This document shows positions 611-47,665 of a DNA stretch of 64,000 nt, piece by piece. Within the stretch, counting starts at the first letter, position 1. Every line of letters starts with the position of its first letter. Under the pieces are notes generated by a model that ran no database searches, had not been told where the DNA came from, and saw nothing but the letters and a program-made list of their open reading frames with translations. The translations under genes and the position numbers were made by a program. The stretch is from an uncultured bacterium (lineage in GTDB: Bacteria; Chloroflexota; UBA5177; JANWHV01). Location of the stretch: assembly GCA_963827235.1 (NCBI GenBank), contig CAWHAE010000016.1:1120001-1184000 (forward strand). The letters are read 5' to 3'.

Positions 611-643
611 GAACTCTTCGGCACTGTACAAGGAGGATCCACG

Positions 644-1036: not shown

Positions 1037-1101
1037 TCGCGCGAACAGGCGCCGGCATGCCCGCGCACGGCACAGCGTCCATGGCATGAGCCGGCGGAGG
1101 A

Positions 1102-1536: not shown

Positions 1537-1686
1537 TCAGGCCTGCCAGTGCGTCCTCTTCCTGACAACGCTGTGGGCGGTGCATCCATCGCGCCTTATA
1601 CTCCCGATCATTGCAGGTTGAGCGCGGCGACGTTCTGCGCAGCGCTATCAACAGACTGCCGCACAGGCAGAAGAAGGAGAGATCTC

Positions 1687-2670
1687 ATGGAATACACGAA
1701 ACTGGGCAACACCGGCATGGACGTCTCCCGCATCTGTTTGGGGTGCATGGGCTTCGGCGATGCCGAACGCTGGACGCACAAATGGGTGCTTGACGAGGAG
1801 AACAGCCGGCCGATCATCCAACACGCCCTGGACCTGGGGATCAACTTCTTCGATACCGCCAACGTCTACTCCCTTGGCAGAAGCGAGGAGATCCTGGGGC
1901 ACGCCCTCAAGGACTTCGCCAAGCGGGACGAGATCGTCGTAGCCACCAAAGTGCACGGCAAGATGCGCCAGGAGCCCAACGGAGGCGGGCTCTCGCGCAA
2001 GGCCGTCCTCAGTGAGATTGACCAGAGCCTCACGCGCCTGGGCATGGACTACGTGGACCTCTACCAGATCCATCGCTGGGACTATCAGACCCCGATCGAA
2101 GAGACTATGGAGGCGCTCCACGACGTGGTGCGGGCAGGGAAGGCCCGCTACATCGGTGCCTCCGCCATGTGGGCCTGGCAGTTCCAAAAGGCACTCCACG
2201 TGGCCGAGAAACATGGCTGGACCCGCTTCGTCTCCATGCAGGATCACCTGAACCTGATCTACCGCGAGGAGGAGCGGGAGATGCTGCCGCTCTGCCGCGA
2301 GGAAAGGATCGGCGTGATCCCGTACAGCCCACTGGCCTCGGGACGCCTGACCCGCGATTGGACCGCCGAGAGTTCGCTGCGTGCTGCGACGGATCAGATC
2401 GCAATCAGCAAGTACGGTGCCACAGTCGACACGGATCGCGAGGTTGTCCGGCGGGTCGCGACCGTGGCGGAACAGCATGGAGTTCCGCGCGTGCAGATCG
2501 CGCTTGCCTGGTTGCTCCAGAAGCAGCCGGTGACCGCGCCGATTATCGGCGGTACGAAGATCAGCCACCTGGAGGACGCGGTAGGCGCGCTCGCCGTAAC
2601 CTTGACCCAGGAGGAAGTCACCTCATTGGAAGAGCCGTACGTGCCTCATCGCATCATCGGTCACCAATAG
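1687..2670 (+). CDS. Aldo/keto reductase
   Basis: MEYTKLGNTGMDVSRICLGCM, FFDTANVY, DLYQIHRWD, PYSPLASG; AAGGAG RBS before ATG 1687. Confidence 0.93.
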   Translation: MEYTKLGNTGMDVSRICLGCMGFGDAERWTHKWVLDEENSRPIIQHALDLGINFFDTANVYSLGRSEEILGHALKDFAKRDEIVVATKVHGKMRQEPNGGGLSRKAVLSEIDQSLTRLGMDYVDLYQIHRWDYQTPIEETMEALHDVVRAGKARYIGASAMWAWQFQKALHVAEKHGWTRFVSMQDHLNLIYREEEREMLPLCREERIGVIPYSPLASGRLTRDWTAESSLRAATDQIAISKYGATVDTDREVVRRVATVAEQHGVPRVQIALAWLLQKQPVTAPIIGGTKISHLEDAVGALAVTLTQEEVTSLEEPYVPHRIIGHQ

Positions 2671-2826
2671 CCGTTCTAGCTACCACCGCTACGCGGAGCA
2701 GTACGATCTGCCCATCATTGGTCCGGACGCGCGTGCCGCGACCATCAAGCTGGTACCGTGCTAAGCACTGGTCCCGGCGCGCGTGGTGTGCACGCGAAAG
2801 CGAAGTGAGAGAGAAAGAGATAAGCC

Positions 2827-2871
2827 ACGCGAGGCGCCATACTGTACGGTCCGCGCGACGTGCGTTATGAG
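2827..2871 (+). pseudogene. N-terminal remnant of a zinc alcohol dehydrogenase
   Basis: Reads (ACG)RGAILYGPRDVRYE after a purine-rich RBS-like tract; matches typical MDR N-termini, start codon lost. Confidence 0.55.
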
Positions 2872-2881
2872 GTTCATTTGA

Positions 2882-3886
<1,005 letters not shown>

Positions 3887-4629
3887 CGACAAGCATCTTT
3901 CGCCACTCGCACGAGCTGCGGACGCGGGAGCGATAGCAGTCGCTGCCAAACATGCGCCCGTGTGTTACTGCCTGTACGGTGCGCGTTCAGCGCATCGAGC
4001 CGGGCACGCGACGCCCAACGCACGAGCATGTCGATGCAGTCCAGCTCGCCTCGACCCGGCAGGCGCGCACGGCTGCACTAGCGACTTGCGTGGGAGGCAA
4101 GTAGGGGCACGAGCACCCTAGCGTTCGGGTTGCCCCAGCCGGTGACGGAGTCTCAGCCTGGGCCTGCTCTCCGTTATCAAACATGAGTTCGCTTGCCCAC
4201 TTCGGCGACCGTACTCATATCGCAGCACTTGCTCTTCTGCGGGTAAAGTTGAGGCCGTCACGCACGGCAAGGCGCGCTTGGGCACGTCCTGTGGTAAGGC
4301 AGGTCGCCGAGGTGCCGATTCCGTTCCTGAGCCATCAGCTTGCGATTGGCGATCGCACAGGCACGCTGCACGAGGGACGTGGGTCCGATCAGGACGCGCA
4401 GCCGGAGGCAGGGTCTGGCCGTCAGGACTGAACGCTACGCTATGTCGCCTCGCTGACCGCTTCGAGTTAGCATTACCGCATCGCGGTGCGGCAGCCGGTG
4501 ACCGCCATATCCTACTCAGTCTGGTTCGGGATGGTAACTAACCTGATGCGGACGAGCTGCATCTGCAGGCTGTTACGGCACAGGGGCCGGGCGTGCAAGC
4601 GCTGCTTGGTGTGGCAAGGGAGGACAGGC

Positions 4630-5118
4630 ATGACCCTCCAATCGTCTATCGGAGCAGCTGCGGTCGCCTGGTTCGTGCTGGTTGCCTCGCTGCCAGGCGC
4701 AGCGGCCGCATACACTGGTACGGCCTGCACGACGAGCTGGGCTGCGCTGACGACGGCCACGGTGGTATACGGCAAGTTCGACATGACGAGCCACGGCGCG
4801 GACACGGGCGACGCCAGTCTGAACCTACCCACGGGCGTTGCGGTAGACGCAAGAGGCGGGCTCTACGTCGCAGATACCGACAGCAACAGCGTGCTCTACT
4901 ATGCCCGAGGCAGCACGATGGCCAGCAAGACGTACGGCCAGCCCGACATCAGGGGCAGGGAACCCGGCACCAGCGTCGCCAGACTGAACCAGCCGACAGG
5001 TGTTGCAGCGGATGCCAGCGGCAGGCTCCTTGTAGCGGAGTATGGCAACGACCGGGTGCTCCGCTTCGCCCGGGGCAGCAGAGTGGCCACCACGGTGTAC
5101 GGCCTACGCGGGCGGTAG
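4630..5118 (+). CDS. Secreted NHL-repeat protein, apparently truncated
   Basis: Signal-peptide-like N-terminus; two NHL repeats (LNLPTGVAVDARGGLYVADT, LNQPTGVAADASGRLLVAEYGNDRV), too few for a full propeller. Confidence 0.65.
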   Translation: MTLQSSIGAAAVAWFVLVASLPGAAAAYTGTACTTSWAALTTATVVYGKFDMTSHGADTGDASLNLPTGVAVDARGGLYVADTDSNSVLYYARGSTMASKTYGQPDIRGREPGTSVARLNQPTGVAADASGRLLVAEYGNDRVLRFARGSRVATTVYGLRGR

Positions 5119-5364
5119 CCGGATCCTCCACGCAGGTGAGCCACCCGAGCGAGCGCGCGAGCCCCTTTCTCCGACGCACACCCAGAGTGTCTGGAACGAC
5201 TCTCCCGAGCAAGGGCATGCACTTGCTTGCCGTCCGCGTCCGCTGTTACGATCAGTCTACGACTGGCGCAGGGAGGAAGGATGGCCGTTTCTCCAGCGTC
5301 CTTGCACGATCCTCTAGCATGTGACGTGAAAGGGAAGCCGCTACGCGTGACCAGGATGGCAGCG

Positions 5365-6294
5365 ATGAACGAGCGCACGGATTACCTGACCAGAGCGCAC
5401 CGGGAAGAATTGCTCGAGCGCATCGCTCACGTCATGCGGGAGGATGGCACCGCGGAGCCCATCGCTGGGCTGTACCTGATCCGCGTGTCCGAGCCGAACG
5501 TGCGAGTGCACAGTGTCTCCGTGCCCTCGTTCTGCGTCATCGCGCAAGGCGGTAAGGAGATCGCTCTCGGCGCGAGCCGCCACGGATACGACCCGGAGCA
5601 CTAGCTGCTCGTGACGGCCGAGCTCCCCTACATTGGGCGCGTCGTCGAGGCGTCCAGTCACCGTCCGTACCTCAGCCTGCGCCTCAATCTCAACCCGGCT
5701 CTGGTCGGTTCGGTCATGGTCGAGGTGGGGATCCCGGCTCCACGCGGTCAGGGTACGGCCAAGGCCATGGTCGTGAGCACGCACGATGCCGACCTGCTCG
5801 ACGCCACGGTGCGACTCGTGCGGCTCAATCGACGATCCCCCCAGGCGCGCGTGCTCATGCCGCTCGTCAAGCGGGAGATCGTCTTCCGGCTGCTGCTGGG
5901 CGAGCAGGGCCATCGCTTGCAGCACTTGTCCCTCCTCGGCAGCCACGCACATCCCATCGCCCAGGCCGTCGAGCGGCTGCGGAAGGACTACGACCAGCCA
6001 CTGCGCATCGGGCGCGTTGCCCGGGAGCTCGGGATGAGCGTGTCAGGCTTTCACGACCACTTCAAGGCCATCACCGACATGAGCCCGCTGCAGTTCCAGA
6101 AACAGGTACGACTGCACGAGGCGCGGCGCCTGATGCTCGGCGAGCACCAGGACGCCACCAGCGCCAGCCTGCGGGTCGGGTATTGCGAGGCCTCCCACTT
6201 CAGCCGCGACTACAAGAAGCACTTCGGAAACTCGCCGGTACGGGACATCGAGTACCTCCGGGCGACCATTGAGGACAGGGTTCGGCAGGGGTAG
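5365..6294 (+). pseudogene. AraC-family regulator (AraC_N + HTH) with in-frame TAG at 5602-5604
   Basis: PSFCVIAQGGK...YDPEH*LLVTAELP continuing in the same frame to MSPLQFQKQVRL and SHFSRDYK. Confidence 0.85.
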
Positions 6295-6457
6295 AACCGG
6301 TTGCCCTGAGCTATGCTATGGAGCAGCGGGCGGGTTGGGCGGTGTCATGAGTGCTGCCGGCGAGCGCGGCGCGGGCTCAGTGGTGGATGTTCGCGCTGAC
6401 GGGCCTACGATGTCCTGCTTGGCAACAACCTGTCCGTCGTAGCTGGAGAGAAGAGCA

Positions 6458-7501
6458 ATACAGGATTCTCACGCCGACGCACCCACAATCCCCGCCCCGC
6501 GACCGCTCCCCAAGGCGCCTGCCCTCCGTTGGGGCGTGTTAGCGCCCGGCGGTATCGCCGCCATGTTCGTCGACGCTGCCAATGCCTATTCCAACCAGCG
6601 CGTTGTGGCCGCCGGCTCACGTACGCTTGCCCGGGCTGAGCAATTCGTCGCCCAGCATGGAATCGCCCGAGCTTATGGCTCGTATCAAGCACTGGTCGAC
6701 GACCCCGAGGTCGATGTCGTCTACGTGGCCTCCACCCATAACACCCATGCCGAGCTCGCCCTGCTGGCCATCGCCGCGGGCAAACATGTGCTCGTCGAGA
6801 AGCCGTTCGCCACGACCCGCGCCGAGGCGGCGCAGGTGGCTGCAGCGGCGCGAGCAGCAGGCGTGCTGGCCATGGAAGCAATGTGGACCCGCTATATTCC
6901 GCAGGCGGACGTCATCCGCCAACTGCTGGAAGCCGGGGCCATCGGCGACGTTCGCATGGTCGCGGCGGACTTCGGCTTCTGCTTCCCCCACGACCCCACC
7001 CATAGGCTGCTCGACTCCGAGCAGGGCGGCGGCGCGCTGCTCGACGCGGGCGTGTATCCTGTCTCGTTTGCCTCCTCGATCCTCGGCGCCCCGCGCTCGG
7101 TGTGCGCCACCGGCCGCACCGGGCCGACCGGCGTGGACGTCGAGGTGGCGATGGTGATCGACCATGGCGACACCGCGTCGGTCGCTTTCACCTCGCTCAC
7201 CGCATCACTGCCGGTGCGGGCTACGATCATGGGCAGCGGGGGACGGATTGAGGTGCACCGCCCCTTCTTCGGCCCGACCGGCATCACACTTCAGACGGGA
7301 GGTTTCGCCGTGGAGGAGACCCTTACCCACTGGGAAGACAAGGCGTTGCCAAAGCTACACGACGGCCTGTCCTATGAGGCCGACGCGCTGGCACGCTTTG
7401 TCGCCGACGGGCGGACCGAGTCACCGATACATACGCTGGACGAAACCGTGGCGATCATCGCCACCCTGGAGGACGCGCGCCGGCAGGTGCTCGGTCAATA
7501 A
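6458..7501 (+). CDS. Gfo/Idh/MocA oxidoreductase (start uncertain; ATA 6458)
   Basis: LRWGVLAPGGIA upstream of the GTG at 6536 is in frame; HVLVEKPF, MEAMWTR, GGALLDAGVY. Confidence 0.85.
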   Translation: MQDSHADAPTIPAPRPLPKAPALRWGVLAPGGIAAMFVDAANAYSNQRVVAAGSRTLARAEQFVAQHGIARAYGSYQALVDDPEVDVVYVASTHNTHAELALLAIAAGKHVLVEKPFATTRAEAAQVAAAARAAGVLAMEAMWTRYIPQADVIRQLLEAGAIGDVRMVAADFGFCFPHDPTHRLLDSEQGGGALLDAGVYPVSFASSILGAPRSVCATGRTGPTGVDVEVAMVIDHGDTASVAFTSLTASLPVRATIMGSGGRIEVHRPFFGPTGITLQTGGFAVEETLTHWEDKALPKLHDGLSYEADALARFVADGRTESPIHTLDETVAIIATLEDARRQVLGQ

Positions 7502-7840
7502 GTCGCGGCATGGCGCACTCCGCACACCTGGCGGCGGGTGGACTTTCCTAGGAACTCGCCACGGCGGCGATAGCGGATCGCGCTCTCCATTTCTCCTGCG
7601 CGAGGTGCAGCCGGCGAAACGCCGGCACGAGACCCAGTCGAACTGCGTCTGGCGATGGACGCACTGCCGAATCTGCTTGACACATGTGTGCATAACCCGT
7701 GAGACCACCCGGTCGCGCAGAAATGAGTCCCACCGGCGCATGTGGTGCATGCGCGACCGATCGGCTATGTTCCCGGACGACCGTGCTCAGGTGGTAGTGC
7801 CGATGGGTATCTCGATAGGAAGCTCCGAACTGGCGGCGGA

Positions 7841-8032
7841 TCAGCCGTGCGCCTGCTGGGCGTGCTTGGGCAGAAGTCCGCCGAGCAACAGCATCAGGAA
7901 ATACAGACCCGCGGTGATACCGAAAGCGACTTTCGCGGCGGCGAAGTAGGCGTGGCTGGACGGCTGCCCTACACGGGCGAAGAATATCGTGCCGAGAACA
8001 GGCATCTGGCTCAACATGGTGACCAAGTCCAA
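7841..8032 (-). pseudogene. Probable C-terminal remnant of a membrane transporter (MFS-like)
   Basis: VLGTIFF...FAAA...LYFLMLLLGGLLP hydrophobic helices; no upstream body. Confidence 0.35.
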
Positions 8033-36225: not shown

Positions 36226-36785
36226 TTAGCTGCCGGATTCAGCCCTCGATCGCAGGACCCAGCCGTGACCCGCGTCCGGGATGGGGTGCTGTCCGAGGAA
36301 GAGGCTCAGTTGGACCGCGTATTCCTGGACGTGACGCATGGTATAGAGTTGCAGCTCCAGAAAGCTGGTGGACTGCCCTGCCGACCAGGGATAGGCGCCG
36401 GGCCGATTCGCCTGCTCATCGGTCAGCGCGACCAGGGTGCAGTGACACTTTCGGCGCAATGACGCGAGATAGTCGCGCAACTCCTCCTTGTGTAGGGCTG
36501 TGCGGGCAGCGCTTCATGAGAATCGAGCACCCCGTGGGCAAAGGGAGCAGGGGGAGTAAACTCCCTCCTCTCCGGCATGCCGGTGAGATACAGGTCGAGC
36601 CAGACCAACGCGTGAAAGCCGACATACCAGAACTCGGCAAACTGCTGGGGGAACTCCGGCGGCGGGGAGTTTCGCCAGAGGCACTGGGTCCACAGCGAGG
36701 CGGGACAGGTCACCAGGGCGTTGTCCAGCATGTCGATGGCGGCGCCGAACTGCCGCCAGAGCGCGGCCTGCCATGGGGTCTCCAT
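36226..36785 (-). pseudogene. DinB-family protein, frameshift near 36490
   Basis: LWRQFGAAIDML, FWY..FHAL.WLDLYL, then other frame LRDYL..ELQLYTMRHVQE. Confidence 0.8.
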
Positions 36786-36817
36786 CTGTCTCAACCGCCT
36801 CGCCTTCTACTCCGTGC

Positions 36818-37219
36818 TCAGGCTCCTTGCTCCTCGCTACCGTCCCGTGCAGGAATACGTTCCTCGAAGATCAGGATGTTCCGAAAGGGATCGCAGAGCC
36901 AGAATCCTTTGGTGCCCCAGGCGGTCTCCTGAACAGGAGACCGGACAGCACCAGTCGGCTCATACTGCTGCTGCAGTGCCTCGATATTGGTGACGCCGAT
37001 ATAGCACACCCTGCAACCCTCTCGGGGTGCTTGTGGTGGATCGGAGACATTCCACTGCAGCGCGATCCTGTCACGTTCGACGATGGCGAACCCTTCGCCA
37101 TGATAGGTGTTCACAAAGCCAAGTTGTCCATAGAATGCCAGGGCTTGCTCCATATCTCCGACAAGAAGTCGAGGCGCGACTGACTCGAGTGTCGGTTGCT
37201 TCTCTAGGGATGCTGACAT
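36818..37219 (-). CDS. VOC/glyoxalase (bleomycin-resistance-like) protein
   Basis: APRLLVGDMEQALAFY..LGF, TAWGTKGF..DPFRNIL; AGAAAGGG RBS. Confidence 0.85.
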   Translation of the reverse strand: MSASLEKQPTLESVAPRLLVGDMEQALAFYGQLGFVNTYHGEGFAIVERDRIALQWNVSDPPQAPREGCRVCYIGVTNIEALQQQYEPTGAVRSPVQETAWGTKGFWLCDPFRNILIFEERIPARDGSEEQGA

Positions 37220-37285
37220 TGGTGCATATCCCTTTCTTGCCCGCAGTGATGCCTGGTGTCTGTGCCAACCCGGCACCGCCATCGC

Positions 37286-37811
37286 GGCGAGGAAAGCACG
37301 CGCCGCCGGGCACCCCTGGGAGACGCACGATGGGGAGCACGTCCCGAAAGACCTGCTCCCCATCGCGTACCTGTGTCCCCGATACTCCTGCTGGTGCCGC
37401 GGACACCGCTACGGCCTGCCTGGTTGGACCCCGTCGCAACGGGTTCCCACCGTTCCCCGCGATTCTCTCGAATCACGTGGTGGCGAGCTATAACGTGCCC
37501 CGAGACTCTCTACCGTCTCCCGCGTGCGTGTGGGATTGGGCGACGGTGGGCTGCCTCGTGCGGCCCTGGTGCGTGGTCATGGTCGACACGACGAACGGGT
37601 CTCCCATACTCTCCCGCCCGCCGGTATCTGGCGACGCTCCCGGCGATAGTTCCCTTCACCCGACCGGCGCTTGCACGCGCGGTCTGCAGTTGCGGGCCAC
37701 CTCAGGGTAGCGGTGCGGATCTCCTTCCTCGTACACAGTTGCATCAGTTCATTCAGGTACTACGAGCATAAGTCACGTCACGAGCGGCATCCAGGAACTT
37801 ATCCACCACGT
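37286..37811 (-). ncRNA. Copy 1 of a duplicated ~525-bp non-coding element: promoter plus putative ~430-nt structured RNA
   Basis: Highly similar to 46302-46828; conserved helices, GAGA and UUCG tetraloops, G-U-compatible substitutions on the minus strand. Confidence 0.65.
37765..37793 (-). promoter_or_regulatory. Sigma70-like promoter of element copy 1
   Basis: TGGATG-N17-TATGCT on the minus strand; hexamers identical in copy 2 while the spacer varies. Confidence 0.6.
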
Positions 37812-38048
37812 CTGAAACGTGCCCGATTTCAAAGGTGATCGGGTTCTGATTGGGAAGGCGACATGGACCACGCGCCGCCCAAGCCGTCGCGCTGCTCCCT
37901 GCCGCCGTGTGATGCCAGGCTCGTGATTAGGAACGAAGCATGCACGGATGTATCCGGATAACCGGCTGCACGCAAGGGATTGTCGCGGGTAGCCTCTACG
38001 GTGTGGGCTGATCACGGCATCGTGCCGGCAACCGCAAAGGGGCTCAGG

Positions 38049-38609
38049 ATGGCCTTGCTGATCTACTCGGCGATCACCTCGCTCGACGGCTATGTAGAGG
38101 ATGAGAACGGCAGCTTTGACTGGGCTGAGCCGGACGAGGAGGTGTTCGCCTTCGTCAACGACCTTGAGCGTCCGGTGGGCACGTACCTCTATGGGCGGCG
38201 GATGTACGAGACCATGGTCTATTGGGAGACCGCGCAGTCATTGGCCAATCACGCGCACGTCGAACAGGACTTCACCACGATCTGGCAGGCGGCCGACAAG
38301 ATCGTGTATTCCCGCACCCTGCAGACGGTCTCCAGCGCCAGGACGCGTATCGAGCGGGACTTCGAGCCCGAGGCGATCCGGCAGTTGAAAGCCACTGCGG
38401 AACGCGACATCACCGTAGGTGGTGCCGAACTGGCCGCCCAGGCGATCCGGGCTGGGTTGATCGACGAGTACCACCTGTTCCTCACGCCGGTCGCGGTCGG
38501 AGGCGGGAAGCCGTCCCTCCCAAACAAGATCGGTGTGCACATCGAGCTACTCGACGCACGCCGTTTCAGCCATGGCGTGGTGTATCTCCGGTACCGCACA
38601 AGGATCTGA
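38049..38609 (+). CDS. Dihydrofolate reductase-like (RibD C-terminal) protein
   Basis: SLDGYVED, YLYGRRMYE, KIVYSRTL, VGGAELA, IDEYHL. Confidence 0.9.
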   Translation: MALLIYSAITSLDGYVEDENGSFDWAEPDEEVFAFVNDLERPVGTYLYGRRMYETMVYWETAQSLANHAHVEQDFTTIWQAADKIVYSRTLQTVSSARTRIERDFEPEAIRQLKATAERDITVGGAELAAQAIRAGLIDEYHLFLTPVAVGGGKPSLPNKIGVHIELLDARRFSHGVVYLRYRTRI

Positions 38610-38639
38610 TCGTTCGCCACTCGGAGCACGGAGACTCAC

Positions 38640-39220
38640 ATGAGAAAGCTCACCATCCACGAACACATCTCGCTGGACGGCGTGATCCAGCAGTCCGCCG
38701 ATGACTGTAATTTCCCCTACGGCAACTGGAGCGTGCCCTATCGGACCCCCGCTGGCCGGGAGGCAATCCTCGCGGCATATGGCGAGCGCTTCGATCTGGT
38801 GCTTGGCCGGCGCACATACGATATGTGGTCGGACTCCTGGCCACACGCGCCGAGCAGTCCGATGGCGGACCGCCTCAATGCGGCCACGAAATGTATCGCC
38901 ACCCACCGGCCGGAAAGTCTTTCATGGGGCCCGTTCGTGTGCCTTGGCCCGGACATCGTCGAGGGCATTCGCCGGATCAAGGCGCAGGACGGCCCGGACC
39001 TTATCCTCGCGGGTAGCTCCACGCTGACATCGACGCTGCTCGAACATGGGCTCGCGGATGACGTCGTGCTGGTCGTCTCTCCGGTCCTGTTGGGCACTGG
39101 TAAGCGCTCTTTGCAGAAGGAACCCCGCCACGCTCTTTCGAGCTCGTCAGCACGAAGGCAACGCCGTCCGGCGTCATCCTCAGTGCGTACAAGGTGGCCG
39201 GGCCTTTGCAGACCGGATAG
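38640..39220 (+). pseudogene. RibD-C/DHFR-like protein, frameshift near 39108
   Basis: ISLDGVIQ, LGRRTYD, GSSTL, PVLLGTGKR then other frame FAEG...TPSGVILSAYK. Confidence 0.8.
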
Positions 39221-39354
39221 GGGTCGTCGCACAAGCAACAACGAACGCGGCGACGTTTGCGCCGGGTCTACGCGTAGGTTTTCTGACCGATTCTGCGACG
39301 ACCCCTCAGTGGCCCAGGGCTACGATTGCGGCGAGCCGTGGCGAGCCTGCACGT

Positions 39355-39412
39355 CCATGGCGTCGTGTATCTCCAGTACCGCGCAAGGATCTGATCGTTC
39401 GGCGCTCGGGGC
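39355..39412 (+). repeat. ~58-bp imperfect direct repeat of 38570-38627 (3' end of DHFR-like gene plus downstream bases)
   Basis: CCATGGCGT(G/C)GTGTATCTCC(G/A)GTACCGC(A/G)CAAGGATCTGATCGTTCG. Confidence 0.85.
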
Positions 39413-39552
39413 CAGGATGCGCATGGTCTGCGTTGTCCCAGGCAGGCGGTCCTGCGTGCTGTTTGCTGCCTCCTCCCGGCGTACAAGGTGCTCTGCGCTG
39501 CCGCCTGATTCCAGGTTATTGAAGGTACGTCTCGCCTGCTGTCCGGGGCTGA

Positions 39553-40434
39553 TCAGATGAAGTAGTGGCCCTGTTCGATGTCCTCGATGAGGCCGGGGTG
39601 GGTGGGCTTCCAGCCCAGGAGCTCCTGGGTGATGGTGCTGGAGGCGGGCATGTCGGTGCTGAGGAGGTGCACGAGCATGCCCCCGAACTCTTCGGCGGGC
39701 AGGGACCGGGCCGGCAGGTCCAGGTGCCGGCCGATGGCCTCGGCGATCTCGCGGACGGGCACGCCTTCGTCGCCGACGGCGTGGAGCACCGCGCCGGCGG
39801 GAGCCTGCTCGATGGCCAGCCGGTACAGGCTCGCGGCGTCCTTCACGTGGACGGCGGGCCAGCGGCTGGTCCCGTCGCCGATGTAGCCGGAGACGCCCTT
39901 GGTCCGGGCCACGGCGATGAGCTGGGGGATGAAGCCGTGACGTTCTCCCTCGCCGTGCACCGAGCGGGGCAGCATGACCAGGCAGGAGCGAACGCCCCGG
40001 TCTGCGGCCGCGAGCGCGGCCTGCATGTTGGTGATGCGGGCCGCGATGGGCCCGGCGGCGATGAGTTCGTCGCGTTCGGTCGCGGGTCGGCCGGGTGTGA
40101 CGAGCGTTGCGCCAGAGATCACCAGGGGCTTGCCGGAGCCGGCGAGGCAGGTGACAAACGTCTCGATGGCCGTGGCGTCGGTCCGCGTCGCAGCCTCGCT
40201 CACGCTGGGCACGACGAAGGCCAGGTGGATGACGCCGTCGCTGTCGAGGGAGCCGGCGCGCAGCACGTCGGTGTCGTTCAGGTCGCCGCGCAGCACCTCG
40301 GCGCCCATGTCGGCGACTGCTGTGGCGGAGGCGTCCGAGCGGGCGAGCCCGAGGACCTGGTGGCCGGCACTGATGAGTTCGGGGACGACGGCCGAGCCGA
40401 TCCAGCCGGAAGCGCCGGTGACGAAGATGCGCAT
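39553..40434 (-). CDS. SDR / NAD-dependent epimerase-dehydratase
   Basis: MRIFVTGASGWIG, VIHLAF, GDGTSRWPAVHVKD, LLGWKP. Confidence 0.9.
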   Translation of the reverse strand: MRIFVTGASGWIGSAVVPELISAGHQVLGLARSDASATAVADMGAEVLRGDLNDTDVLRAGSLDSDGVIHLAFVVPSVSEAATRTDATAIETFVTCLAGSGKPLVISGATLVTPGRPATERDELIAAGPIAARITNMQAALAAADRGVRSCLVMLPRSVHGEGERHGFIPQLIAVARTKGVSGYIGDGTSRWPAVHVKDAASLYRLAIEQAPAGAVLHAVGDEGVPVREIAEAIGRHLDLPARSLPAEEFGGMLVHLLSTDMPASSTITQELLGWKPTHPGLIEDIEQGHYFI

Positions 40435-40502
40435 GGAAAGGTCTCCTTGGTCGTGCTTTGGGTGATGAAGATGCGCGGCGAGGACGCCGCGGCCGAAACG
40501 AC

Positions 40503-40586
40503 GATGCGATCCGGTCGCATCAACTATACCACAACCATGCGATGAAGTCGCATCATCTCTCCAGGTGATGCGATCCCGGTCGCCTC
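40503..40586. promoter_or_regulatory. Three palindromic candidate TetR operators
   Basis: GATGCGA-N5-TCGCATC (40503), ATGCGA-N5-TCGCAT (40537), GATGCGA-N6-TCGCCTC (40567) between divergent SDR and TetR. Confidence 0.75.
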
Positions 40587-40601
40587 GCGTATGCTGTGAC
40601 G

Positions 40602-41217
40602 GTGAGCAGATGGGCACCGAACGCGCGTGAGCGCCTGGAGACCGCCGCGCTGGACCTGTTCGTGGAGAACGGGTACGAGGACACGACCGTCGCGCAGATC
40701 GCGGATCGCGCCGGTTTGAACCGCGCCACGTTCTTCCGGCACTTCGCCGATAAGCGGGAGGTCCTGTTCGGCGGTGAAGACGTGCTGGCCGGGCTGTTCG
40801 CCGACGGCCATCCGGGCTGCCTCTCCGGATGCGACGCTCACCGAGTGCCTGCAGGCGGCGTTCGCGGCCGCCGAGGTCGCGATGACTCCGCAGCAGCGGG
40901 CGAAGGCCGCCCAGCGCGTGCTGGTGGTCGCGGCGAACAGCGAACTGCAGGAGCGGGGACTGCTCAAGCACGCCCGGATCGCCAGGTCAATCAACGCCGC
41001 CCTGCGCGAACGGGGCGCAGACGAGCTGACCGCCCGGCTGGGGGCGGAAGTGGGGATGCTCGCCTTCACCATCGCCGTTGAGCGCTGGATGAAGGCGGAC
41101 AATGACGAGCCGTTCTCGCTCCATGCCGCAGCGGCATTGCGTGACCTGCAGGTGCGCGCGGCCGAGCTTGACTCCCGGTCCCGCCCCTCAGTCTCACGTG
41201 AGTTCAGCGAAACGTAG
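40602..41217 (+). pseudogene. TetR-family regulator, frameshift near 40805
   Basis: RWAPNARERL, GYEDTTVAQIADRAGL..TFFRHFADKREVLF; C-terminal ELQERGLLK in another frame. Confidence 0.8.
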
Positions 41218-41249
41218 GAGACCAGCTCACGCTTGTTACGAGTCAACAA

Positions 41250-41375
41250 AGGCCAGCTAGCGAACCGGAGGAAGGGCAGTTCAGGCGGCCGCCTGTACGC
41301 CTTCGACACGGAGAGGCACAAGAAGCGGCACGCCATGAAGTGCGGTATCAACCGGCTCAAGCGCAATCGTGCCAA
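41250..41375 (+). mobile_element. IS5-family transposase C-terminal remnant
   Basis: NRRKGSSGGR..AFD.E..K.R...CGINRLKRNRA. Confidence 0.6.
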
Positions 41376-41623
41376 ACTAGTCATCCACCACCGTGTAGAC
41401 CACCGTGAACACCATCTCCTACGGTACATCCATGGCAACCTCCGCCGCGACGGTATTCACGTGGTGTCTCGCTGTCCGATGAGGCTTTACTTGAGCGAAG
41501 CCAGCGAAAGCCGCGCGAGGAACCATCAAGTAGCCACGGTGGCTGGTCCGCCATCTGGGACATCTTGCTCGATGTTTTCCGCGTGTCGTGCCGCCGGGCG
41601 GTCGCATCCGTGCCACGATCCGT

Positions 41624-41911
41624 TCAGTCGAAGGACTCCGGCCACTGACGTTTTGAGTGGATGACGGCGAGGAGTTGTACCACGCCCGTGCGACTGCGAT
41701 AGGGCACAATGTATGGGGTGTTCGGTACAACAAGCTCGCGCGTGCCGTCCACGCGTCCTGGCCGCCCCAGCGCCGGTTGTTCGAGAAGCAGCGCGGCAGT
41801 CGCAAAGATGCGGTCGTAGACTCGCTCCGCGGCGTCGGGATCGTCACGCGCGATGTACGCGACAATCTCAGCCAGATCTGCTCGGGCTTGCGGCATCCAG
41901 CGGAGACGCAC
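41624..41911 (-). CDS. Type II toxin, RelE/ParE family
   Basis: RLRWMPQARADL.EI..YIARDDP, GRPGRVDGTRELVV, YIVPYR, VIHSKRQWP. Confidence 0.9.
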   Translation of the reverse strand: MRLRWMPQARADLAEIVAYIARDDPDAAERVYDRIFATAALLLEQPALGRPGRVDGTRELVVPNTPYIVPYRSRTGVVQLLAVIHSKRQWPESFD

Positions 41912-42190
41912 TTAGCCCTGCGCTGAGGTGCCGCTGCCCAGTCGAGCGCGCGCGTCGGTGACGATGTGCCGCATCTCCGCTTCGATCTCGTCCTGTTCAT
42001 AGCCCAAGTCGGCATCTGCTTCGGCCAGACCTTGGCGGATCTTGGCCACTTGCCAGCTCTCTTCGGCCAGGTAGCGCCGTACCGCTTCTGCCACGTGGTG
42101 ATTGCGGCTACGTCCTGTAGCGGCGGCGAGGGCATCCAGTTGCACCTTATACTCTTCCGCCATGCGGACCGGGATGTTTGTCGTTGCCAT
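41912..42190 (-). CDS. CopG/ribbon-helix-helix antitoxin
   Basis: LDALAAATGRSRN...EAVRRYL..E.WQVAKIRQGLAEAD; abuts the toxin gene. Confidence 0.88.
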   Translation of the reverse strand: MATTNIPVRMAEEYKVQLDALAAATGRSRNHHVAEAVRRYLAEESWQVAKIRQGLAEADADLGYEQDEIEAEMRHIVTDARARLGSGTSAQG

Positions 42191-42620
42191 CGCGGTGTAG
42201 CCTCCTCACTGCGAGTATAGCAGCTGTAGAGATCTGTAGACATACCGTCTGCAACACGAAGCGCCAACACCGATCGTGGTCCTTGGGCTCGTACGCAGGG
42301 GTCGGCGCGCGTCAAGGGAGAGGGCGATGCGCGGGCGCCAATGCGTTGAGACGGACTGACTGAACGCATCAACGCACTCACGCTTCGGCGCAGTGGCCGG
42401 CGGTGACGCTGCCGCGCAAGCGCCGATGACAGCCAATGCCATCAACTACAGAATCCGACCATCAAATGGGTCTCACATACAATGTCCAAACATCAAGGAA
42501 GTTGTCGTACGACACTCGCTGCAAGGTTGCCAGTCTACGCTCTCAGCCCCTCATGTGCACCGCGCGCCTCAAGCTCTGCCGGTGCTGCCGTTGTGCAGGA
42601 AGTTGATCTGCCGCTTACCA

Positions 42621-42656
42621 CCATCGCCATCGCCATCGCCATCGCCATCGCCATCG
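42621..42656. repeat. Hexanucleotide tandem repeat (CCATCG)x6
   Basis: Six perfect copies. Confidence 0.95.
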
Positions 42657-42860
42657 CACACGAGGGTGCGCCGGTCAGTATACAAATGAAGAGCATCGTG
42701 TCCCTGGGCGACGACGAGGCTCGCCCGGATGACTGCCGGCCGGGTGCAGCGTGATGCCGTCCAGCCGGCACAGGCCGCAGCCACTGGTGAGCCGTGGATC
42801 ATCAGCGTGGGCGCGCACCGGCGCGGCGGGCAGGGCCAAGGCGATAGACTGGGTTCGAAG

Positions 42861-44090
42861 CTATCGACGCCCGCGAAACGTTCGTCGCAGGTCCTCGACC
42901 CATTCTTCGGGGACTTCCCATGGAATGAAGTGACCGCCGTGGTCGTGCGCGGTGATGTTGACGTGGTTGTACCAGGCGGCGCGATCGCTTTCCAGGAAGT
43001 GCTGCACGCGTTGCTCGTTCGTGTCCACGCCGGGCGGATTCTCGTAGCCGACGAACGTGATCCCGGTTGGTGCTTCGACCACCGGCCAGCGATCATGCGA
43101 CGGCTGCCAGGGGTAGCGGTTGTTGTTCGCGTAGGTGCGCATGGACGTGGCGATCGCGTCTCCGGCCCAGTAGATCGTGGCATGGGTGAGCCGGTCGTCC
43201 TTGCTGAAGACGTTCTCGATGTTGCCGCCGGTGTCGGCCCAGTTGGTTCAGCGCTCCAGGATCCAGGCGAGCATTCCGGCAGGCGAGTCGGTGAGCCCAA
43301 AGGCCAGCGTGCTGGGGTCGAGCACGTGCGCGGCCAGATGCACGGCAAACCGCTTGTCCAGGCTCACGATCCGCCGATGGATCGCGGGCCGGAGCCCTTC
43401 GGGAATGGCTCGACCGCCGGAGTAGTCCCAGCCGCGGTCGCCATTGAAGAAGCTGAGCTTCAGCCCCGAGCAGATGTGGATCGCATACAGCTCGCCGGCG
43501 TACTTGTGCCCGAGCTGCCCGGTGATGAGCGCGCCGACGTCGCAGCCTGCGGCGGCGTATTTCCGGTAGCCGAGAATCCCCGTCATCAGCTGGCGCCAGA
43601 CGTCTGCTATCTTCCAGAAGTTCATGTCCGGGCTGCTCGACGGCGGTGTTGAGAAGCCGAATCCCGGCAGCGACGGCACGATCACGTCGAACGCCTCGCC
43701 GGGGTCACCACCGAACGCGCCGGGATCCGCCAACCGGTCGACGACCTTCGACCAGTGCCAGAACGTCCACGGCCACCCGTGCGAGAGGATCAGCGGCGTC
43801 GGGTTGGGGCCGGCTCCCGGCCTGCGCATGAAGTGGACGGGCACGCCGTCGACGTCGACCTTGTAGTGCTCGTAGGCGTTGATCGCCGCTTCCGCCGCGC
43901 GCCAGTCGTACCTGGTACTCCAGTACTGCACCAGCACCTGCAGATACGAGCGGCGCACGCCATAGTAGCCGTCATCGTTGCCGGCATCCTCGGGCCACTT
44001 GGTCGCCTTCAGCCGGACGACGAGGTCGTCGAGCACCGCATCCGGGACATGGATCGGCGTTTGCTGCAGCGGGAATGCTGTATCCGGCAC
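42861..44090 (-). pseudogene. Epoxide hydrolase (EHN domain) with in-frame TGA at 43248-43250
   Basis: VLDDL..RL...WP, YDWRAAE..IN, HGWP, PSLPGFGFS, LTDSPAGMLAWILER*TNW, GGHFIPWE. Confidence 0.88.
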
Positions 44091-44303
44091 GCCCAACTCC
44101 GTGACAGTGACTCAAACCCAAGGCAAGCATGTGGGCGTGTTTCCGTGCCGACGGCCCGGGGCGGCCGGCGGTTCGTTGCGCCGCCGCGACGAGGAGGCCC
44201 ACGACCCTGCCCTGAGTCTAGTCTACGGGACAAGGCGTCGAAGACGAGGGTTCGAGGCCGGCCGTAACCCAGTGTTGTGCCCTGGTGGCCATGCCGCTTA
44301 CTC

Positions 44304-44723
44304 TCATGCTCGGTGCATATGCCCGTCTTGGGACTTTATGTAGTCATAGGATTGTTGCACGATTTGTTCAAGTATTGGCAGTTGTATATCGCTAAGCCGC
44401 TTGATGTACACACAAACCCTGCTCGAAGTATGTTTGCCTAAGCGAGCCAGTAATTCAGAGTAACGTACCGTGCCGTCCATAAGGTAAATGGTTATCTTAC
44501 CTCTTCTTGGATAAAAACCAATAGTCTGGCTGTCGCCTTCGCGTCCGCTGTCGTATTTGTAGTGATACGTATCAAACCCGATAGTTCCCACATTCCACAT
44601 CTTTGGCTCATGTCCGCTTATTCTCTGCATCATTTCAACAAGCACGTGGCAATCTCTTACGCTTTCTTCATCGTCAAGTGAAGAAATATAGTCTGTGACT
44701 GAACTGTCATTATGAGTAGTCAT
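44304..44723 (-). CDS. DUF1801 (YdhG-like) protein, AT-rich
   Basis: PKMW...IGFDTYHYKYDSGREGD, GFYPR, LGKH..S..CVYIKRLSDI. Confidence 0.88.
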   Translation of the reverse strand: MTTHNDSSVTDYISSLDDEESVRDCHVLVEMMQRISGHEPKMWNVGTIGFDTYHYKYDSGREGDSQTIGFYPRRGKITIYLMDGTVRYSELLARLGKHTSSRVCVYIKRLSDIQLPILEQIVQQSYDYIKSQDGHMHRA

Positions 44724-44828
44724 TTTGTCCATGGGTCATATTGTACCATCTCAGACAGTGCCAACTCAACGAGCAGGGGCGGACGGCACGACAGCTGAGG
44801 GCATGTTAGCAGCGGACGGCGTCTCCAA

Positions 44829-45430
44829 TCAGAACGACCCAGCGTTGACCGGACCTGCGGCGCGGTAGGTGGTGATGAGGACGCCCTTGGGCGTGCTGCG
44901 CGTCTCGACCAAGGCAAGGCCGCGCGGCAGCACGCCATTCCCAAACAGCCGCTTTCCTTCGCCGAGCACCACCGGAGCGATCCAGTGGCGATATTCTTCG
45001 ACAAGCTCGGCAGCGATCAGCGTTTGCAGCATGCGCTGCTGCCCCCGACATGTAGCACAGGCCCATCCGATGCCTTGAGGCGGCGGACCTCGTCCATGAT
45101 ATCGCCCCCTATGCGCTGCGACTTCTCCCAGTCGAGCTGGTCGAGCGTGCGCGTGACGACGTAATTGGTCGCCTTGTTGAACGCCTTCGCGATCGGGTTG
45201 TCGCCCTGGTGCGGCCAGCAGGCGGCGAAGATCTCGTAGGTCCGGCGTCCCAACAGCATGCCGAACTCCCCAGCGATAGTCTCGTCGATGATCTGGCTGA
45301 GGGCGTCGTCCCCGAAGGGCATGGCCCAGCCTCCGTAGGTGAACCCGTTGCTCGGATCCGCGTCGGGGCCACCAGGCGCCTGCATGACGCCGTCCACCGT
45401 GACTTGGGTGATGGCGATGATCCTTCTCAT
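44829..45430 (-). pseudogene. RibD-C/DHFR-like protein, frameshift near 45030
   Basis: TVDGVMQAPGGP..D, LLGRRTYEIFA; other frame QTLIAAELVEEY..APVVLGEGKRLF. Confidence 0.82.
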
Positions 45431-45622
45431 TGTCTCTCTCCAGTTTCTTCGCATCGCATCCCAAGACGCGAGCACCAATTGGCCGCTCTCTCTGGCTTTC
45501 GGTTCACTTGCTTGCCTTGGACGGCAGCGAGAGAGAGCGCGCGACATGGTCGAGGCTCTACGCGGCAATCTCAGGCCCACCCTTTTGCCGTGGAGTCCGC
45601 CAATGCCGGCATCGCGGGCCTC

Positions 45623-46183
45623 TCATGGCCTGCTGCGATAGCGGAGGTGCACGACGCCGCACCCACACCGGTGTTCGTCGAGCAGCTCGAGCGGCAGGTG
45701 CACTTGCCTGGGCAAGGCGGGGAGGCCGCCTCCGACCACGACTGGCGTGAGGAACAGGTGATACTCGTCGACCAGCCCGGCACTGATGGCCTGGGCGGCC
45801 AGGGTCGCGCCGCCGATGCTGATATCGCGCTGCAGGCTGCCTTTCAGCTGCCGCACCGCCGCGATGTCGAAGTCTCGCTCAATCCGTGTCCTAGCGCTGG
45901 AGACCGCCTGCAACGTCCCGGAGTACACGACCGTGTCGGCCGCCTGCCAGATGGCGGCAAACTCCTGCAGGACAAGCGGCTGGTCGGCGACGAAGCGCGG
46001 GTCCTCCCAGACGACCATCGTCTCATACATCTTGCGCCCCAAGAGGTGCGTGCCGATCGGCCGCTCGAGCTCATTGATCAACGCGATTACCTCCTCGTCC
46101 GGCATCGTCCAGTCGATGCTGCCCTGCTCGTCCGCGACGTAGCCGTCGAGGGACGTGTTCGCAGCGTAGATCAGCTTGGCCAT
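45623..46183 (-). CDS. Dihydrofolate reductase-like (RibD C-terminal) protein
   Basis: SLDGYVAD, LLGRKMYE, IGGATLA, VDEYHL; AAGGAGG RBS; close paralog of 38049-38609. Confidence 0.9.
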   Translation of the reverse strand: MAKLIYAANTSLDGYVADEQGSIDWTMPDEEVIALINELERPIGTHLLGRKMYETMVVWEDPRFVADQPLVLQEFAAIWQAADTVVYSGTLQAVSSARTRIERDFDIAAVRQLKGSLQRDISIGGATLAAQAISAGLVDEYHLFLTPVVVGGGLPALPRQVHLPLELLDEHRCGCGVVHLRYRSRP

Positions 46184-46301
46184 ACAGGATCCTCCTTGTA
46201 CGCATGGTGCCTGCATCGCGCAATCTTCCCGCGGGTAGCCGCGTGGCATGGAGACCGCGAGCCTGGTTAGCGCGTGTCAGCAGATCCAGATTCGCACGCC
46301 T

Positions 46302-46828
46302 GGTGAGGAAGCCACGCGCTGCCGGGCGACCTCGGGAGACGCACGATGGGGAGCACGTCCCGAAAGACCTGCTCCCCATCGCGTACCTGTTTCCCCGATA
46401 CTCCTGCTGGTGCCGCGGACACCGCTACGGTCTGCCTGGCCGGACCCCGTCGAAAGGGGTCCCTTCCATTCCGCGCGACTCTCTCGAATCACGTGGTGCC
46501 GAGCTATAGCGTGCCCCGAGACTCTGTACCATCCCCCGCGTGCATGTGGGATTGGGCGACGGTGGGTTGCCTCGTGCGTCCCTGGTGCGTGGTCGTGGTC
46601 GACACGACGAGCGGGTCTCCCATACTCCCCCGCCCGCCGGTATCTGGCGACGCTCCCGGTGATGGATTCCCTTCACCCGACCGGCGCTTGCACGCACGAT
46701 CTGCAGTTGCGGGCCACCTCAGGGTAGCGGTGCGGATCTCTTTCCTCGTACACAGTTGCATCAGTTCATTCAGGTGGTACCAGCATAAGTCACGTTAGGA
46801 GCGGCATCCAGGATGTTATCCACCACGT
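46302..46828 (-). ncRNA. Copy 2 of the duplicated ~525-bp non-coding element
   Basis: Highly similar to 37286-37811; promoter TGGATG-N17-TATGCT at 46810-46782; terminal hairpin 46344-46381. Confidence 0.65.
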
Positions 46829-47041
46829 TTGCGAGTTGCCATTCCGACTTTGGCGGCGCACCATGGGGGCGCAGGTGCCTGGGTGATGAGGAGCTGCCCC
46901 ATGCGAGCGACGCTTTTCGCGGTACACTCACCCGAGCAACGCCGCTGCCATTCTTTGTCATTGCAGCCGAGCGCCTAGCTCGAGGGACGGCGTGGCACCG
47001 GGGCCCTGTGGTGGGAGGGCAAATCTGGAAAGGTGCTCTCG

Positions 47042-47665
47042 ATGCGGGCTCCTCGCCCGGGGACTGTCGGCCTGTGTGGAATCGCCGCGTTCGCCGGCCT
47101 GGTTGGCGTGGAGCATGTCCTGCGCCCCGACCATGATCCGTGCGGCCGCTATGTGAGCGAGTATGGCGTGGGTCCCTATCACCAGGTGATGACGACCGCG
47201 TTCTTCGCTCTCGGGATCAGCTCAACCGCCACGCTGGTGGATCTGTCGCGAACCGTTCCCGCCCCTGCCCGCTCGCGCGCCGGTCTCGTCTTCCTCGGCA
47301 TCTGGAGTGGGGCGATTCTCGTTGCCGGGCTCTTTCCCACGGACCTCTCGGGACCGAACGGCCGGCCGGAGCACCCAACGACGCCGGGAATCATCCGCGC
47401 GCTGGCCGGCGTTACCGGATTCCTCAGCGTGCCGCTCGCCGCGTGTCTGCTGGGCCGCGGGTTCCGGCGTGACCCCGCCTGGAAGCGCTTTGCCCAGCCC
47501 TCGCTCACACTGAGCGCGCTGCAGAGCGCCGCCGTAGTACTGTCCATCGCTAGTCCAGTGCGGTACATCGGCGTGAACGAGCGGGTCTTGATCGTGTGCG
47601 ACCTGGCGTGGCTAGCGTGGCTGAGTCAGGTTCTGCGGTGCGCGCAGTACCAAGTAAAGGAATAG
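47042..47665 (+). CDS. DUF998 family membrane protein
   Basis: HVLRPDHDP..YVSEYGVG, AGLFPTD, G.NER; multiple TM helices. Confidence 0.8.
   Translation: MRAPRPGTVGLCGIAAFAGLVGVEHVLRPDHDPCGRYVSEYGVGPYHQVMTTAFFALGISSTATLVDLSRTVPAPARSRAGLVFLGIWSGAILVAGLFPTDLSGPNGRPEHPTTPGIIRALAGVTGFLSVPLAACLLGRGFRRDPAWKRFAQPSLTLSALQSAAVVLSIASPVRYIGVNERVLIVCDLAWLAWLSQVLRCAQYQVKE

Follow-up and report, generated by a model that had tools for sequence, protein, structure and literature searches.

What is the repeat that occurs twice, on the same strand and about 9 kb apart, in a 64,000-nucleotide stretch of the genome of an uncultured Chloroflexota bacterium (contig CAWHAE010000016.1, positions 1,120,001 to 1,184,000; this whole stretch is called the window, and its first letter is position 1)? 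The original prediction, made from the letters of the window, offered two options, a large cis-regulatory leader or a stand-alone non-coding RNA (ncRNA) under structural selection. The comparative analysis reported here favours the second option; the first was set aside, as the genes that follow the element are diverse and at several loci convergent with it. We put at about 80% the probability that each repeat is an independent gene for a highly structured, stand-alone ncRNA of about 430 nt, which acts in trans and is encoded on the minus strand. The two copies are members of a genuine family of large structured ncRNA genes in soil Chloroflexota that had not been catalogued before.

Local alignment within the window gave two homologous stretches, 37286-37814 and 46302-46831 (copies A and B), which are about 92% identical and whose ends lie within 3 nt of those originally proposed. 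Comparison of both copies also bore out that their flanks are unrelated to each other. The two copies differ at 43 positions over about 526 nt, and 26 of these differences are transitions; by codon phase they fall 15/14/11, that is, with no codon periodicity. Both blastn and an nhmmer family profile found only these two copies in the source genome, which measures 8.0 Mb and has a GC content of 65%. The RNA genes predicted within the repeats are as follows.

37326..37759, minus strand: RNA gene copy A, about 434 nt between predicted ends (nhmmer family-profile match from 37759 to 37329)
46342..46776, minus strand: RNA gene copy B, about 92% identical to copy A (nhmmer match from 46776 to 46345)

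A profile search for further copies, as the original prediction had suggested, found the family outside the source genome. With blastn, copy A had partial matches in two of the four other genomes of the same genus, and this search of relatives gave no family match beyond the genus. In the genus relatives the whole element is conserved in the alignment, from the invariant TGGTGGATAAC box through the terminal hairpin. Scanning species-representative genomes with a pattern of the 3' core produced 22 matches, of which nhmmer confirmed eight: seven contigs of two soil metagenome-assembled genomes (MAGs) named 'Chloroflexota bacterium' and one contig binned as Edaphobacter. The other 14, in unrelated phyla, were chance matches. 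A second scan, of metagenome contigs with the invariant 5' block, returned 28 contigs; nhmmer confirmed 26 of them and did not confirm L039 and L054. After deduplication, 25 distinct near-full-length RNAs were available, originating from three Chloroflexota MAGs and from 26 metagenome contigs. They form three subfamilies, and subfamily 1 consists of the two window copies.

The covariation that the original prediction had asked for in a larger alignment was present. RNAalifold on eight sequences predicted 109 pairs, 34 of them with compensatory changes. The 25 RNAs were then aligned with MAFFT from sequence only (alignment A3), and a 69-pair consensus structure was derived from this same alignment. 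In it 95.9% of the cells are paired, compared with 90.1% in shuffles, and 29 of the 69 pairs change on both sides; shuffles average 16.9 such pairs, and none of 500 gets to 29. When the register was slid by 1-3 columns, only 37-50% of cells were paired and just 5-13 pairs showed double-sided changes. For the conserved 3' domain a covariance model was built (R1; 174 positions, 53 pairs), to which 34 matches were aligned (alignment A5). In the R1-aligned 3' domain 90.5% of cells pair, compared with 83.2% in shuffles, and 29 of the 53 pairs are changed on both sides, compared with 16.2 in shuffles (0/500). One GNRA-capped hairpin of this domain co-varies at all 13 of its pairs.

The same alignments indicate the strand. 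It had been argued that substitutions within helices preserve pairing on the minus strand through G-U wobbles, and the argument holds for the family: there are 240 G.U cells and 32 A.C cells, which identifies the minus strand as the RNA strand. If the opposite strand were the RNA, 76.6% of cells would pair instead of 90.5%. The z score of the copy A fold was -3.8 for the minus strand, compared with -2.3 for the plus strand. The element is non-coding: no open reading frame (ORF) is conserved across the family, of 420 gap runs only 31 have a length divisible by three, and variable columns are distributed 83/96/98 over the three phases.

These results bear on a reading of the repeat as a conserved DNA-level element, for instance an array of protein-binding or replication sites, or as a decayed coding sequence, with an incidental RNA structure. 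A sequence of such high GC content folds well by chance (copy A has a folding energy of -214 kcal/mol and the shuffle mean is -191 kcal/mol), and the invariant box upstream of the RNA resembles a DnaA box. However, the compensatory changes exceed those of every shuffle and every slid register, the asymmetry between G.U and A.C cells is strand-specific, hairpins are capped by GNRA or UNCG loops, codon periodicity and a conserved frame are both absent, and contigs from RNA libraries lie on the element (see below). We consider a DNA-level element very unlikely.

The stand-alone RNA has a fold on which the structures computed separately for each subfamily agree. Its parts, in window coordinates, are listed below.

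37732..37758, minus strand: 5' strand of the closing stem, beginning with ACCUGA (37758-37753); paired family-wide, in 25/25 sequences
37368..37392, minus strand: 3' strand of the closing stem, holding CAGGU (37373-37369); partner of the 5' strand, helix 1
37712..37723, minus strand: invariant block GAGAUCCGCACC, identical in 25/25 sequences
37568..37711, minus strand: variable 5' domain, delimited from per-subfamily folds
37393..37567, minus strand: conserved 3' domain (model R1) of copy A, R1 score 133.9 bits
46409..46583, minus strand: conserved 3' domain of copy B, R1 score 122.4 bits
37326..37367, minus strand: terminal GC-rich hairpin with a UUCG loop, present in 25/25 sequences, presumed terminator or 3' protective hairpin

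In each of the 25 sequences the 5'-terminal ACCUGA... pairs with ...UCAGG just before the terminal hairpin (folding energies -18 to -34 kcal/mol). The resulting closing stem, roughly 20 bp long, encloses the GAGAUCCGCACC block and both domains, the variable 5' one and the conserved 3' one. At the second pair from its CCUG/CAGG core, subfamily 2 has U-A or U-G, whereas 13 members of subfamily 3 have G-C; the middle segment differs wholly in sequence with its pairing kept, and three of the four pairs of helix 1 are changed on both sides. No co-varying partner was identified for the invariant block among the 25 sequences. The 5' domain is composed of a GNRA-capped hairpin, a hairpin with a UGGGA loop and a small UCG/CGA hairpin, and the 3' domain of a closing helix, a hairpin arm and a long arm that ends in a three-way junction with two GNRA-capped hairpins. 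The terminal hairpin is also found in all 25 sequences, with folding energies of -27 to -43 kcal/mol and 10 of its 16 pairs changed on both sides.

Three of the helices originally proposed recur throughout the family as conserved, co-varying helices of this fold: ACCGUC/GAYGGU (helix 8), CGUGAUUC-GAGA-GARUCGCG (helix 11) and GGGCGGG/CCCGYUC (helix 4, in which four of the five pairs change on both sides). In GUCGUG/CAYGAC, a 3-bp UCG/CGA stem is conserved (helix 5) and the rest is not; GGUGA/UCRCC lies within a subfamily-specific region. The 9-bp long-range helix CACCGCUAC/GUAGCGGUG, thought to close the structure, is not the conserved closing helix, a role that belongs to the ACCUGA.../...UCAGG stem. 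It can form in both window copies, yet 36% of dinucleotide shuffles also contained at least one perfect 9-bp complement; in subfamilies 2 and 3 its 5' strand lacks a complement at that site and its 3' strand (GUAG...) pairs inside the 3' domain.

Two further features suggest tertiary contacts. A loop of the 5' domain (UGGGA/GGAAU) is complementary to a loop of the 3' domain (UCCCA/AUUCC) in 25/25 sequences, and one position of this match varies as G-C (8 sequences), G-U (6) or A-U (11). A loop-loop (kissing) contact between the two domains is tentatively proposed from this pattern; duplex energy provided a weak control, at -11.6 kcal/mol for the cognate loops and -9.9 +/- 3.5 kcal/mol for shuffled loops. 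Two natural variants, L031 (7240-7622) and L034 (7173-7556), have no copy of one two-hairpin module. The long GNRA-capped hairpin of the 3' domain is missing from them, and the loop of the neighbouring hairpin is UNCG-like (CUCG/UUGG) in place of GNRA, which hints that these two hairpins may contact each other in the full-length RNA.

A conserved layout precedes the RNA genes. In 27 distinct upstream regions an A-rich tract is followed by a GGTGGAYAA box and by a -10 element. The box starts 49-51 nt before ACCTGA in 25 of the 27 regions, and the -10 element (TAnnnT) lies 13 nt before ACCTGA and is conserved across all of them. In copy A this -10 is likewise found 13 nt upstream of ACCUGA, and the terminal hairpin finishes near 37326. 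The sequence TGGTGGATAA occurs in the window only at the two copies.

37798..37808, minus strand: upstream box of copy A, TGGTGGATAAG (family consensus TGGTGGAYAAC; fixed distance in 25/27 distinct upstream regions)
46815..46825, minus strand: upstream box of copy B, placed by the fixed-distance conservation of the box
37765..37793, minus strand: promoter-like TGGATG (37793-37788), 17-nt spacer and TATGCT (37770-37765), read from the sequence

The minus-strand promoter first proposed, TGGATG-N17-TATGCT, can thus be read at copy A and its -10 is conserved; its -35 is not, and a scan for the sigma-70 consensus did not report it, so that the assignment of the promoter rests on conservation rather than on consensus strength. 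The only sigma-70-like match in 37150-37950 is a plus-strand site at 37583-37610 (TCGACA-16-CATACT), which would be antisense to the RNA. At the other end of the gene, short U-rich runs follow the GC core of the terminal hairpin in most copies of subfamilies 2 and 3.

The reverse complement of the upstream box, TTATCCACC, matches the consensus of the DnaA-box 9-mer at 8/9 positions. Clusters of TT[AG]TCCACN are present directly upstream of two Bac_DnaA-domain genes in the source genome (G000). They contain three 9-mers each (G000:C19:133700-133822 and G000:C12:1628965-1629098), and the ORFs downstream of them are comparatively short (364-365 aa). The source genome also has two full-strength Bac_DnaA matches (C16:621254 and C12:11080); the four DnaA-type genes in one MAG, for which contamination is 9%, may be real paralogues or reflect a mixed bin. 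The use of the box as a regulon marker was rejected: GGTGGAYAAC occurs 30 times in the genome, about the number expected by chance, and by eye most occurrences are in apparent coding sequence. The DnaA-like match of the box is at most a lead on regulation.

RNA libraries hold contigs of the family or of its relatives. A k-mer search pointed to 13 runs (12 recorded as RNA) from 10 studies, each sharing 0.05-0.06 of the words. Evidence was taken from four of these runs, metatranscriptomes of wetland, soil, peat and salt marsh from four studies, and the nine others, with the same 0.05-0.06 word share, were not used as evidence. At a placement threshold of 80% likeness, all four metatranscriptomes yielded contigs lying on 37368-37775 (5, 82, 7 and 1 contigs, 80-99% alike). 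Most of these contigs are less than 95% alike and hence come from relatives. The 82 contigs of the soil run, a library of 62 million letters, reach a summed word depth of up to 945 over the conserved core. Such a depth is out of reach of DNA in so small a library, from which we infer that members of the family are abundant, highly expressed RNAs. The segments 37200-37367 and 37776-37900 were not covered and carry no evidence on transcript ends, the flanks of the relatives being different.

Is the RNA a leader of the gene that follows it? The original prediction described the repeats as upstream of detox-type genes, and the neighbours concerned were examined together with those at other loci (48 neighbouring ORFs, scanned against Pfam). 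The two downstream neighbours in the window, both outside the element, are listed here.

36818..37216, minus strand: VOC/glyoxalase-family ORF, downstream neighbour of copy A (Pfam PF00903, E = 9.9e-6)
45623..46249, minus strand: RibD_C-domain ORF, downstream neighbour of copy B (Pfam PF01872, E = 7.4e-17)

Pfam thus supported the VOC/glyoxalase ORF and both ORFs of the RibD_C pair, and the gene called DinB (ORF 36423-36794, minus strand) had no Pfam match at E<=0.01. The detox theme is a feature of the two window copies only. Across the family, the downstream genes are mutually unrelated: VOC, RibD_C, AMP-binding/acyl-CoA synthetase (ACS), M20, nitronate monooxygenase (NMO), M24, NrfD, AHSA1 and a ResIII helicase. 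In all, four RibD_C (dihydrofolate reductase-like) ORFs are found in the window less than 9 kb apart (37980-39560 and 45017-46249), two beside each RNA copy, and they fall outside the segment that was duplicated with the RNA.

A cis-regulatory 5' leader, that is, a riboswitch or attenuator of very large size whose expression platform would be the terminal hairpin, is compatible with the window and with every subfamily-2 locus where a gene was called, as the next gene is co-oriented there and starts 3-272 nt past the element; read-through of the copy-A hairpin, which has no U-tract, is also conceivable. At seven other loci (L031, L034, L044, L050, L052, L053 and L027), however, the next gene is convergent and ends 10-185 nt from the element, and the RNA cannot be the leader of those genes. 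The downstream genes share no single pathway or ligand theme, and no riboswitch or leader family of Rfam matches the element. The terminal hairpin is very stable in all 25 sequences; no conserved alternative pairing was noticed, and no dedicated search for one was made. A length of 430 nt is well beyond that of known riboswitches. A leader is therefore judged unlikely. The RNA is not tied to any one downstream gene, and the stand-alone reading is well supported.

The same neighbour accompanies the same RNA subfamily on different contigs in several cases: ACS (L004/L042, L037 and L056), NrfD (L044, L050 and L052), M24 (L031 and L034), NMO (L006 and L008) and MBL-M20. These recurring neighbours indicate stably inherited paralogous loci. 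Upstream of one RNA paralogue, and divergent from it, lies a very long ORF of 1376 aa (L041:410-4540 and L042:749-3673). It is a fusion of two cytochrome b5 domains with P450, flavodoxin, FAD-binding and NAD-binding domains, and is like a BM3-type self-sufficient P450 with extra b5.

The stability of these loci matters for another origin, in which the repeat is a remnant of a mobile element, either a non-autonomous transposon or an orphan guide-type RNA such as an omega RNA. The family is multi-copy with unrelated flanks, and truncated copies exist: L030:404-641 is a 5'-truncated copy that retains the 3' half only, and L032:176-357 is a 3'-truncated copy of subfamily 1 type that comprises the first ~110 nt of the RNA. 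These two copies show that the RNA genes can decay or be broken by rearrangement. RNAs also occur as tandem pairs (L029, L043/L055 and L053), and tandem pairs flank a gene pair resembling a PIN-domain toxin-antitoxin system. In this VapBC-like pair (L043:772-1460, plus strand, and also L053), an ORF of 87 aa runs into the start of a PIN-domain ORF of 141 aa (E = 1.2e-13); the tandem RNA copies on either side of the pair, separated by about 1.09 kb, are encoded on the other strand.

The signatures of transposition are nevertheless absent. The original prediction had named a miniature inverted-repeat transposable element as the alternative, and the check was run on the window copies: there are no terminal inverted repeats (when the first 30 nt are set against the last 30 nt in reverse complement, 9/30 and 8/30 positions match) and no target-site duplications (the longest word shared by the flanks is 3-4 nt). 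No transposase, integrase, reverse transcriptase, IscB or TnpB was detected by Pfam among the 48 neighbouring ORFs. Genomes carry 0-5 copies (two in 8 Mb), paralogues keep orthologous neighbours across contigs, both ends of the RNA are conserved with no variable guide-like segment at either, and collections of plasmids, phages and viral contigs contained no match to the family. A mobile-element remnant is thus quite an unlikely source of the repeat.

One copy, L027, also touches on mobility; like the tandem copies around the PIN-domain pair, it has surroundings that look accessory. It is a full-length subfamily-3 copy, with the same element sequence as metagenome contig L038, on the 9.8-kb contig binned as Edaphobacter, hence in another phylum. 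Its flanks have 55% GC, compared with 61-70% at all other loci, and its neighbours (1-8000) include a ResIII/DEAD helicase, a DUF559/REase_MTES_1575 ORF and several ORFs without a Pfam family. This contig is either mis-binned or an isolated horizontal transfer or acquired island; among 120 genomes sampled from the family to which the bin belongs, none had an R1 match.

Within the genus, R1 detected the RNA in three of five genomes, with two, four and five matches. Sixteen other genomes of the class contained no R1 match except one, of 30 bits in G010, which was rejected since it lies inside an ORF that reads as GNAT-like and is not accompanied by the 5' motifs. In 150 other sampled genomes of the phylum, searched with stricter filters, R1 gave no match.

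The stand-alone RNA belongs to no family that we could find. The Rfam check that had been proposed was run with Rfam 15: no family reached its gathering score in the 64-kb window, and nothing below E = 1 was found on 37100-38000. On eight loci spanning the three subfamilies, Rfam gave only two weak matches, both outside the element. ARAGORN reported no tRNA or tmRNA in 36500-47500. A search of the literature at the level of abstracts found no earlier description of this RNA family; the supplementary motif lists of large discovery screens might contain it.

Type A RNase P RNA is similar in size, in the closing helix that joins its 5' and 3' ends and in its GNRA tetraloops. Identity with RNase P was rejected: the element has no RF00010 match, and the canonical RNase P RNA is encoded elsewhere (G000:C16:375902-376282). 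It occurs once in each of the five genomes of the genus (284-299 bits), including the two in which the new RNA was not found. RNAs of the 6S and Ms1 type are rods of 180-300 nt with a central bubble. They are, like the new RNA, stand-alone and abundant with paired 5' and 3' ends, whereas the new RNA has a branched two-domain fold. The 6S model RF00013 had no match in the five genus genomes, but it is insensitive and matched only 5 of 14 control genomes. The omega RNA of HEARO/IscB and the reRNA of TnpB lie beside or inside the nuclease gene of an insertion sequence and have a variable guide at one end. The new RNA shares with them a structured fold of a few hundred nucleotides and several copies per genome, and differs by having no nuclease gene among the 48 ORFs, no guide-like end and neither inverted repeats nor target-site duplications.

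Like the large 'ornate' ncRNAs of bacteria, the new RNA is several hundred nucleotides long, has a branched fold supported by covariation and has no coding capacity; it can be grouped with OLE, raiA, ROOL and GOLLD by its size, its branching, its tetraloops, the invariant nucleotides at its junctions and its apparent abundance, and has Rfam-level homology to none of them. OLE RNA is a large multi-domain stand-alone ncRNA with extensive covariation, whose function was long unknown, and is found in Bacillota beside the genes of its partner proteins. The new RNA also has hundreds of nucleotides, several co-varying domains and a stand-alone gene; unlike OLE it is multi-copy and has no recurring partner gene, and neither sequence nor structure matches. 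The raiA RNA, of ~200 nt, is present in Bacillota and Actinomycetota. The new RNA is twice that size, without an Rfam match, and, in the genomes searched, confined to a single lineage of Chloroflexota. ROOL and GOLLD are tied to phages or prophages and to tRNA loci, whereas the new family has no viral, phage or plasmid match and no homology to them; it resembles them in being large and ornate, with many GNRA-type elements. According to published reports, raiA (ModT) is a complex-folded and very abundant ncRNA whose biochemical function is unknown (PMC12968392, PMC11706538), OLE has been solved as a homo-oligomer by cryo-electron microscopy (cryo-EM), and ROOL and GOLLD form RNA-only multimeric assemblies (both PMC12286853). 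Multimeric assembly would be one possible mode for the new RNA as well.

A number of observations weigh against a stand-alone, trans-acting RNA. On the side of transcription, the 27 upstream regions share no conserved -35, and the sigma-70 scan calls no minus-strand promoter for copy A and reports one promoter-like site on the plus strand, inside the element. No canonical terminator was found for copy A in a consensus scan, and the window copies A and B have no U-tract after the terminal hairpin, so that transcription may run on into the VOC and RibD_C genes, which have the same orientation. Every downstream gene called in subfamilies 1 and 2 is co-oriented, and a local cis effect is possible there. 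The metatranscriptome contigs come mostly from relatives and cannot show strand, ends or level, and RNA libraries may contain DNA. On the side of structure, alignment A5 was fitted to R1 and the structure of A3 came from A3; the sequences compared, 25-34 in number, are related and fall into three clades, and cell counts overstate the number of independent events. Finally, no gene for a partner protein recurs near the RNA loci among the 48 ORFs scanned with Pfam, the RNA was not found in two of the five genus genomes (83% and 87% complete), which indicates that it is not essential to the genus, and its function is pure inference.

We propose the following scheme for a stand-alone RNA. Transcription would start from the conserved layout of A-rich tract, invariant TGGTGGAYAAC box about 50 nt before the first conserved bases, and -10 element, and may depend on a factor recognising the box, for which DnaA or one of its paralogues is a possible candidate. 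The 5' end of the transcript pairs near its 3' end and holds the variable 5' domain and the conserved 3' domain inside, with the terminal hairpin after them. By analogy, the RNA would then act in trans, most likely either within a protein complex, as its scaffold or partner, or else as an RNA-only assembly or a ribozyme, and the invariant nucleotides of its junction and internal loops may form the functional site.

To our knowledge, few large and intricately folded RNAs have been found in bacteria, and nearly all of those characterised are ribozymes, cores of ribonucleoproteins or RNA-only assemblies. By this comparison, the most likely role of the new RNA would be that of the core of an RNA-protein or RNA-only assembly, or of a ribozyme. 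A stronger version, which we regard as possible but doubtful, is that the family ranks beside OLE, ROOL and raiA as a new class of large functional RNA: a ribozyme or the core of an RNA-protein or RNA-only machine, specific to a widespread lineage of soil and wetland Chloroflexota, with several specialised paralogues in which a 3' domain for catalysis or binding would be common to all and the 5' domain would vary, expressed at housekeeping level and possibly linked to growth or replication through a DnaA-box-like operator. The RNA comes from an uncultured, poorly understood, soil-dwelling phylum, and contigs of the family or its relatives are present in RNA libraries from soil, peat, wetland and salt marsh. 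With about 430 nt and natural length variants it is tractable for cryo-EM and biochemistry, and its paralogue subfamilies are built-in comparative data for locating the functional core.

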